Part shown: piece after piece, positions 1 to 3,000 of the stretch
Layout of the letters: every line of letters starts with the position of its first letter
How positions within the stretch are numbered: position 1 is the stretch's first letter
IMG/VR virus record: IMGVR_UViG_2778261675_000002
Reading direction: 5' to 3' (one strand)
DNA length: 4,194 bases
Source of the DNA: a virus
Lineage: Duplodnaviria > Heunggongvirae > Uroviricota > Caudoviricetes
Made by a program: the position numbers and the translations under genes
The notes under the pieces: model-generated
Database searches by the model: none
The model's input: only the letters and a program-made list of their open reading frames with translations
What the model was told of the DNA's origin: nothing

Positions 1-3000
1 CTGATTCTTACCGTGATGGTGCCGCTGGCATAACTGTTCGTGCGGGGGAAAGACTTGCTGACCGTTTTGACAATATCACCTTCAATCTGGTTGACTGACA
101 GTTTCCCCTTAATCTGACAGTTCTCATTAATCGTGACGTTGTTGAGCGTCCCGGCGTTCGCATTCACACTGCCACTGATATCCGCATTTTTAGCGGTCAG
201 CTTTCCGTCTGATGTCAGGGAAAATGCCGGTGGATTTCCACCACTGGTAATGGTCGGGGCCGTCAGGCGCTTCAGGAACACGTCGTTCATAAATATCTGA
301 TTGCCCTGCGCCACAAACATCGGCGTTTCATTCCCGTTTGCCGGGTCAATAAACGCGATACGGTTAGCGGCAACCAGAAACTGGCTCAGCTTGCCTTCTT
401 CCGTGTCCTCCATGCTGAGGCCAAGCCCCGCGACATAATGTTTGCCGTCTTTGGTCTGCTCAATTTTGACGCCCCACATGGCATTCCACTTATCGTTAGC
501 GTCCTGCCACTCTTTCGAAAACTCCTCCAGTTTGCTGGCGTTATCCTCCGTCAGCTCGACTTTTTCCAGCAGCTCCTTGCCGAGATGGGATTCGGTTATC
601 TGGCCTTTGAAAAAATCCAGGTAACCTTCCGCATCATCGCTCGCCTGACCGACAGCCTCCACGAATGCCGATTTGCCAACGGTGTTCACACTGCGGATAT
701 AAAAGTAATAATCATGGCCCGGTTTGATATTGATACTGGCGGCTATCCAGTACATCCCCGTGCCAAGATAGCGCGCGCTGGTTTCAACCTGCCTGATATC
801 CGCAATCCGCTTTTCCGAGAACCAGAACTCAAACTGTACCGTCGGATCATAAACCGCAAGATGCGGCGTGGCGGTTATCTGAAAATACCCCGGTGTCAGC
901 TCAATCTGCGACGGCGCTGCCGGTGCGGCAATCCGGAACGATACCGATGCCGGATCGCCCTGCTGCCCCCAGGCATTTGCCGCCCGGACTGTCAGCCTGT
1001 AGTTCCCCAGCGCCAGTTGCGTGAAGCGGTATGTGGTTTCCGTCGTCCGGGCCGTGCTGACCAGCCGCTCACTGCCGTCATCCGCTGCCACGGTCAGGCG
1101 AAGCATAAAGCTCACGCCCTTCACCACCTTCGGCGTATCCCAGCGCGCCAGCACCTGATATTCCCCGCTGTCTGCGGTGACTTCGGCAGTCAGGTGCTGC
1201 ACCGCGGGCGGCGTGACGCCATTCACCGTGCCGCTCTGGTCGCCGTCAAAGTGCGCCCCGTTATCCACGATGGCTTCTTTTTCGGGTACATGCTGCACGG
1301 CGGTGATGGCATACGTGCCGTCGTCGTTCTCACGGATACTCACGCAGCGGAACAGGCGCTGGCGCAACGTCGGCAGCTTCAGCCCCCATACGCTGTATTC
1401 AGCAACGCCGTCAGGAACACGGCTCACTTTCACCTTCACGCCGTCGGTGACGGACTGGACCTCCACGCTGACCGGATTACCCTGCCCGTCAACCAGGCTT
1501 ATCAGCGTGGTGCCGGAGGATGGCAGCGTGATTTCACGGTCGAGCGTCAGCGTCCGGGTCTGGCTGTTCACCGCCAGCACGCGACCACCGATGCTGATAC
1601 CGGCATAGTCATCATCGCAGATTTCAATAACATCGCCCGGCACATGGCGAAGCCCTTCTGCGCCCACGCTGAAATCCACGGTCTGCGTTTCCAGCAGTTC
1701 CGTTTTAATCAGCCACAGCCCGGCTCGGTGTGCCTGCCCCCGACTGGTACAACCAAAGGCATCCATCTTCGTGACATTACGACCGTAACGGGCAATGGCC
1801 TGCGTATCTTCAACAAGCTCTGTCGCCGTCTCCCAGCCGTTATTCGGGTCAATCCAGTTCACCTCAACGGCATTATGGCGGTCCTTCAGGGCGCTGAAGC
1901 TGTAGCGGAACGGCGCACCATCATCCGGCATCACCACATTACTGCGGTTATAGGTCCACACCTTATCTGATGGTCGGTCCTGCACGAACGTCAGCGTCTG
2001 CCCGTTCCATACCGGCATACAGCGCATCGCCGAGCAGAAATCACTGAGCACATCCCACGCCTTGCGCTGTGTGGTCAGGTACGCATTACAGGTAATGCGC
2101 GGCTCCGTGCCGCCAAAGCCGTCCGGCACCGACTGGTCGCAGTACTGGCCGATGACATACAGCGCCCATTTATCCACATCCGCCGCACCAAGACGTTTCC
2201 CCATGCCGTAGCGCGGGTGGGTCAGCATATCCCACAGACACCAGGCCGGGTTGTTGCTGTATGCCGGTTTTAACGTTCCGTCCCAGATACCGCTGTATTG
2301 CCGCGTCTGCGGGTTATAGTTCGACGGCACCTGCAGAATACGCCCGCGAAGATGATAATTACGGCTCACCTGCTGGCTGCCGAACTGCTCCGAATCCACC
2401 TGCACGCCGACCAGTGCCGTGTTCGGGTAGCACTGTTTCACATCGATGATTTCGGTGTATGACGACCAGAGCGTTTTGTTCTGCAGCTGGTCTGTGGTGC
2501 TGTCCGGTGTCATCCTGCGCATCCGGATACTGAACGGGCGCGGAGGCAGGTTATCCACCACCACCGAGGCCAGATACTGCGAGGTGGTTTTGCCCTTAAT
2601 GGTGATGTCTTTTTCCGTCACCCAGCCACCATTACGCTGTATCTGAACCAGCAGGCGAACTTCCGACGGATTCCGGTCCCCCTTTGAGGTGGTTTCCACC
2701 AGTGCCTGCACACCGAAGGTAAAGCGCAGTCGGTCGATGTTTGCCGACGTGATGGCGCGGGTGATCGGCGTGTCATATTTCACTTCTGTACCGAGCACCG
2801 TCTCGGAGCCGGAGGATTCAAATCCCTCCGGCGGTGTCTGCTCCTGCTCACCGGCCCGGAACACCACCGTGACGCCGGATATATTGGTATTCCCCTCACT
2901 GTCCAGCACCGGCGTACTGTTCAGCAGCACGCTTTTTAATCCATCCACCGGACCTTCAACCGGCCCTTCGCTGATGGCATCGATCACACTCAGCAGCTGC

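Follow-up and report, generated by a model that had tools for sequence, protein, structure and literature searches.

A mosaic lambda-like J gene ending in the known A8/phi330/2H10 allele, with OmpC as its probable receptor

The window, by which we mean the whole 4,194-nt stretch of viral DNA that was analysed, encodes most of a J protein together with gene I and the 3' part of gene K. This J is very probably a mosaic from a lambda-like prophage of the E. coli type, in which residues 1-973 are of the lambda type and the sequence from residue 974 is the allele found in A8, phi330 and 2H10, directed at OmpC and acquired through homologous recombination. Sequence likeness supports OmpC, and not LamB, as the likely receptor of the window J, function itself having been shown for A8 and phi330 only. 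The allele has already been characterised functionally, used in engineering and deposited in the PDB together with OmpC, and the finding is therefore correct and already known.

Tail-tip genes of the window

All of the long coherent reading frames found in an ORF scan of the 4,194-nt window lie on the minus strand. The features to which the text refers are as follows.

1..3062, minus strand: J, tip attachment or central tail fibre protein (open frame; 94% amino acid identity to lambda gpJ; Pfam hits)
3123..3770, minus strand: I, tail tip assembly protein of 215 aa (ORF; 78% identical to lambda gpI; PF06805 on identical proteins)
3668..4194, minus strand: 3' part of K, C40/JAB tail tip assembly protein (open frame; annotation of near-identical prophages)
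156..191, minus strand: conserved junction stretch AAAAATGCGGATATCAGTGGCAGTGTGAATGCGAAC, J residues 958-969 (identical in lambda, 434, 2H10, phi330 and A8)
63..143, minus strand: first non-lambda segment, J residues 974-1000, distal beta-prism fibre layers joining the receptor-binding domain (RBD) (mismatches from nt 142)
1..62, minus strand: start of the Ig-like RBD, J residues 1001-1020, A8/phi330 allele (Pfam bounds; identity to PDB 9wca)

The J gene opens with an ATG at nt 3062 and runs for 1020 complete codons and two further bases (AG) before the left edge of the window cuts it, and about 112 codons are absent when it is measured against the 1132-aa J of its relatives. K exits at the right edge, and its end, close to nt 3668, overlaps I by ~100 nt, as it does in lambda; a 60-nt spacer separates I from J. 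Over its whole length the window is 94-96% identical to many lambdoid phages and at most 98.8% identical to E. coli prophages or to the best complete genome. The closest prophage relatives harbor complete K-I-J-lom-stf-tfa sets, the operon order after J being lom-stf-tfa. Within the 1020 residues, Pfam recognizes FNIII-A_GpJ, Phage-tail_3, Ig_J, Ig_J_second and Phage_Tail_Tip with E-values from 1e-34 to 1e-43. On the basis of this domain series, the operon position after K and I and the 94% amino acid identity, the J fragment belongs to the lambda gpJ family.

It was also considered whether the locus is a defective prophage remnant, with J disrupted beyond the window and hence no receptor binding. 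Disrupted copies do occur, as in L007 (GCA_900449495.1), where IS/transposase genes interrupt J at residue 779, and E. coli genomes contain a median of 3 such loci each. The window nevertheless retains 1020 open codons that are 94% identical to the functional lambda J, K and I are intact, and the complete gene sets of the closest relatives point the same way, making decay of this particular locus highly unlikely. The interrupted prophage, which encodes a gpI identical to that of the window, also has a split tape-measure gene and represents a decayed copy of the tail module.

The break against lambda and the allele beyond it

When aligned with lambda gpJ (NC_001416, 15505-18903), the window J is identical at 967 of 1024 positions (94%, BLASTP), with the mismatches clustered past lambda residue 973; residues 1-973 are ~96% identical. 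The initial annotation had quoted the J translation at the end of the window and set against it a lambda string. Both are exact, the former as the minus-strand translation and the latter, AENCTINGTLRAEKIVGDIVKAASAAFPRQRESSVDWPSGTRTVTV, by comparison with gpJ of NC_001416. It had also described a J that follows lambda over most of the window and departs from it within nt 1-200, and the DNA bears this out. Identity to lambda is 2786/2919 (95.4%) over nt 144-3062 and 80/143 (55.9%) over nt 1-143 (Fisher p = 1.1e-40), so that the C-terminal stretch is plainly not lambda-identical. Mismatches become dense from nt 142 (J residue 974), and within this run 4 codons present in lambda are deleted.

The fibre domain Phage_Tail_Tip ends in Pfam at residue 972, and the domain Ig_GpJ_C (PF12421) starts at residue 1001 in lambda and at 1008 in 2H10; because of these bounds, the non-lambda segment is assigned to the end of the fibre and the start of the RBD. 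The connector between them (residues 974-1000, ~27 residues) shows 63% identity to lambda, and the A8-type (B) and 1A2-type (C) alleles share it completely (100%). Ig_GpJ_C itself gives no Pfam hit in the window, where about 13-20 residues of the domain are present, and is found in every full-length relative. The first loop of the RBD, TNSY (nt 41-30), is 4 residues shorter than that of lambda and 8 shorter than that of 434, and corresponds to T918-Y921 of phi330. The region that determines specificity had been thought to lie outside the window; this holds for the ~112 missing residues, but not for the first ~20 residues of the RBD, the TNSY loop included, which lie inside.

Counted from J position 974, 47 residues of the divergent end are visible in the window. 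The match is closest to 2H10 and A8 (46/47), followed by phi330 (44/47), the type C allele (38/47) and the 1W-type variant (37/47, 79% over the visible tail). Phage 434 and lambda itself match at 27/47 and 25/47, respectively. We refer to the non-lambda C-terminus of the form ...SKSFPRT(NS/ST)...KKSTAGISIS as type B. All relatives that match the last 200 nt of the window at 95-100% have a type B C-terminus, and on a lambda-type body this end always gives a J of 1132 aa. Type B carriers include 2H10, Salmonella phage SPF_0923, Turner, PhiR29_2/PhiR30_1, phi330, many long-tailed Stx1a/Stx2a phages and numerous prophages. The visible residues already distinguish type B from type C (GKAFPRDSRAPERWPSG...) and from the 1W type.

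Two other ends were considered and rejected. The LamB-binding end of lambda (AENCTINGTLRAEKIVGDIVKAASAAFPRQRESSVDWPSG... from residue 974) is discounted by the 25/47 residue match, the 55.9% DNA identity and the 4-residue deletion in the first loop. The 434-type end (MLEATQVRGDFVKAVSKAFPKKVGTWGNTETPDG...) matches at the 27/47 residues given above, and DNA similarity to 434 is lost at about nt 106-126. In alignment with J proteins of known receptor, the window thus falls with the OmpC-directed A8/phi330 type, and neither with the lambda nor with the 434 type.

The match to A8 is also supported by structural and published DNA records. The protein 'A8 gpJ 713' in PDB entry 9wca agrees at every position (100%) with the C-terminal 232 residues of 2H10 J, and the window matches it as far as the window's last residue except for conservative differences in the body. 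The GpJ A8 DNA in the supplement of PMC11338833 ends in type B sequence, and its stretch TCTTTCCCCCGCACGAACAGTTATGCCAGCGGCACCATCACGGTAAGAATCAG equals the last bases of the window; the supplement text is machine-read with letters dropped, and the identity of A8 was confirmed via the PDB sequence. The window differs from A8 by two substitutions, S970A and A988V, both in the fibre part and both shared with E. coli S10, PK8277 and one IMG/VR contig.

The divergent end is, on these sequence comparisons, the known A8/phi330/2H10 allele. A different C-terminal domain had been proposed for it. The segment is indeed non-lambda, but it represents a divergent allele of the same Ig-like PF12421 family, with 43% identity to the lambda RBD, and is not a different fold.

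A variant of the A8-type domain, with 81% amino acid identity across the RBD, is found in 1W (L018, OM475428), 4A7, Lambda_4C10, mEp460_4F5 and PhiR57_1. It keeps the ENFNSNNQQS and ANNWTP hairpins and differs in other surface stretches; for this 1W-type variant no receptor or OmpC-variant-range data were found.

Continuation past the window edge and the receptor

How J continues to the left of nt 1 can be judged from its relatives. E. coli S10 and PK8277 agree with the window at every base of nt 1-200 (100%) and show 94.5% identity over its whole length. A 185-nt exact pattern taken from the window end had one match in viral_contigs, the IMG/VR contig L019 (97.9% identical overall), with 0 matches in genome_contigs and 0 in metagenome_contigs. 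All three of these sequences continue as ...SDDQKFDRQVMIPP...KKSTAGISIS, identical to A8, to give a J of 1132 aa, and in all three the next codon is AGT (Ser), which the trailing AG of the window fits. The motifs ENFNSNNQQS (1043-1052) and ANNWTP (1105-1110) lie beyond the window edge and are present in 3/3 of these exact-match relatives. Among phage records, 67 cover at least 80% of window 1-200, and 67 reach that coverage with a query joining the same 200 nt from 2H10 to its 337-nt type B continuation, the latter set including the 79%-identical 1W-type variant. The two lists were counted separately, and their equal counts fit with a tail that usually continues as type B or 1W-type. We infer that the window J carries on into the A8-type domain, as its relatives do, and is functional.

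A different RBD could, in principle, be joined just to the left of nt 1, giving a receptor specificity other than that of A8 and phi330. The C-terminal part of J is strongly mosaic, the break points being nested and falling at nt ~142, ~120 and ~63 according to the sequence compared, and the same gpI goes with J proteins of 1131 to 1165 aa and at least four tail types. Moreover, the exact protein reconstructed from the 1020 aa of the window and the A8 tail is absent from a collection of 15 billion proteins, and the real protein therefore either differs somewhere or lacks a record. Set against this are the three sequences that are exact over the last 185-200 nt, which continue as A8-type in 3/3 cases, and the residues that discriminate the allele from type C and 1W, which are already inside the window. 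Such a further junction is accordingly given only a small chance. A slightly smaller chance still is allowed for the idea that the unseen 112 codons form a new recombinant RBD, or that S970A/A988V are signs of a sub-lineage that triggers differently or accepts another range of OmpC variants.

With continuation as the A8-type domain retained as the preferred reading, the receptor follows from what has been established for that allele. In the work of Brodel et al. (Nature 2024, PMC11338833), C-termini of natural gpJ proteins were joined to lambda gpJ at residue 964. The A8 chimera, with lambda gpJ 1-964, delivered DNA to a lamB/ompC double deletion only when OmpC was supplied, and it takes most of the OmpC variants tested (PMC11338833). 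The OmpC of K-12 is used by A8 and not by 1A2 (PMC11338833). The 1A2 chimera appears to carry the type C allele, as judged from machine-read text that contains errors. Phage phi330, whose RBD is 98% identical to type B (2H10/A8), fails to plate on the Keio ompC deletion, a defect that Plac-ompC corrects, and the phi330 authors predicted that two hairpins, ENFNSNNQQS and ANNWTP, contact OmpC (PMC12502783). Finally, PDB entry 9wcb contains 'A8 gpJ 713' and three chains named 'Outer membrane porin C', and from these chain names we infer a complex between A8 gpJ and OmpC. Paper searches found no publication describing 9wca or 9wcb, and no paper on receptor work for the PhiR ECOR phages.

Three independent lines, namely the A8 chimera, phi330 and 9wcb, thus tie type B to OmpC. 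The expectation that the receptor would probably be other than LamB is accordingly upheld by the 46/47 match to the A8 allele, which is experimentally OmpC-dependent (PMC11338833, PMC12502783).

When lambda binds, four loops from each RBD of the J trimer enter the LamB trimer, after which the RBD bottoms spread, the fibre transmits the change and the tail tip opens (PMC11101478). By analogy, and given the 43% RBD identity, the shared family and the 9wcb entry, the type B end would act as that of lambda does but on OmpC. Residues 1-973 would provide the lambda-type hub, FNIII domains and fibre, and the sequence from 974 the A8/phi330/2H10 allele of the fibre end and the Ig-like RBD. Each of the three RBDs of the J trimer would sit on one subunit of a trimeric porin, in this case OmpC and not LamB, and on binding the RBD bottoms would spread as in lambda, with the change travelling up the fibre to open the tail tip.

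Several characterised J proteins serve to place that of the window. The A8 and 2H10 J proteins (LR595862) have the same junction region, and the 1132 aa of the window's relatives equals their total length; the work on A8 used a chimera joined to lambda at residue 964, while the J of the window is a natural mosaic. The J of the Stx2a phage vB_EcoS_phi330 (PV189401) bears the same RBD allele as the window on a body of a different lineage (Pankowvirus), and its first loop reads TSTY in place of TNSY. Lambda gpJ (P03749; 8IYK, 8XCJ, 8XCK), which is directed at LamB, has the architecture and gene order seen in the window, and its RBD, of the same Pfam family, shows 43% identity across the RBD of the window's relatives. 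The J of phage 434 is OmpC-directed and has the same domain and junction, with an RBD that is 43% identical to the type of the window. Type C/1A2 is likewise OmpC-directed, though variant-restricted, with the same junction and an RBD that is 61% identical to the type of the window.

Module exchange, distribution and further mosaic patches

The stretch AAAAATGCGGATATCAGTGGCAGTGTGAATGCGAAC adjoins the variable part on its upstream side and is kept even in phi330, despite a J body with only ~77% identity elsewhere. A single mismatch in its 36 nt was seen in L013. Since it is identical across lambda, 434, 2H10, phi330 and A8, it may be a plausible site of recombination. The last 200 nt of the window are 95.5% identical to phi330 at the DNA level, against only ~77% for the J body, and this occurrence of the same tail on so distant a body confirms the mosaic junction that had been supposed for lambdoid phages. 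At least four types of J C-terminus, in J proteins of 1131 to 1165 aa, occur alongside one and the same gpI protein, and the break points form a nested series (~nt 142 against lambda, about nt 116-126 against 434 and ~nt 63 against type C). The abrupt fall in identity and the presence of the same tail on a ~77% identical body therefore argue for module exchange and not for gradual drift.

Gradual divergence by point mutation, with diversifying selection acting on an ancestral lambda-type end and no recombination, would be compatible with the homology of the RBD alleles (43% identity, same Pfam family) and with experimental evolution, which concentrates J changes in this region (cited in PMC11101478). 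It would have to account, however, for a drop from 95% to 56% DNA identity within a few bases, indels included, and for a tail that is found at 95-100% DNA identity on J bodies ranging from 77% to 98% identity to that of the window. We regard it as very improbable. Under the preferred reading, exchange between J genes, the allele would most likely have been gained by homologous recombination, using the conserved stretch coding for residues 958-969 on the upstream side and, on the downstream side, lom and the conserved end of J.

The allele is common. A 537-nt type B query against 5426 E. coli genomes gave 735 records at ≥99% identity and 772 at 95-99%, about 1500 in total, where counts are per record, for the best place only, in complete genomes. 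It is thus widespread in E. coli genomes, as well as in many long-tailed Stx phages, and has been exploited for engineered DNA delivery. The analysis indicates that a receptor can be assigned to the tail tip of this prophage, OmpC over LamB, from only 47 residues, and that the 958-969 junction reliably shows where the specificity module of lambdoid J genes begins. Its importance beyond annotation is small.

Exchange is also apparent elsewhere in the tail-tip genes. Among relatives with an identical gpI (L005-L010), the helical shaft and upper fibre of J are 27-33 residues longer, giving J proteins of 1159-1165 aa, and the window at ~328-565 (J residues ~833-912) has the lambda-like version of this segment. 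These alternative versions therefore represent a further exchangeable J module upstream of the receptor-binding end.

The middle of gpI (window 3320-3570, minus strand, residues ~68-150) diverges from lambda gpI, with both ends of the protein nearly identical. The divergent part is 8 residues shorter than that of lambda, Gly/Ala-rich and hydrophobic, and appears as a gap in megablast comparisons with lambda and with 2H10 (J-sense positions 624-827). It constitutes a second mosaic patch within the tail-tip operon.

Antisense to J, a 510-aa ORF lies at window 438-1970 on the plus strand, within a stop-free stretch of 585 aa. A stop-free antisense frame in J is also found in lambda (705 aa), 2H10 (677 aa) and 434 (585 aa), and is probably a by-product of codon composition.
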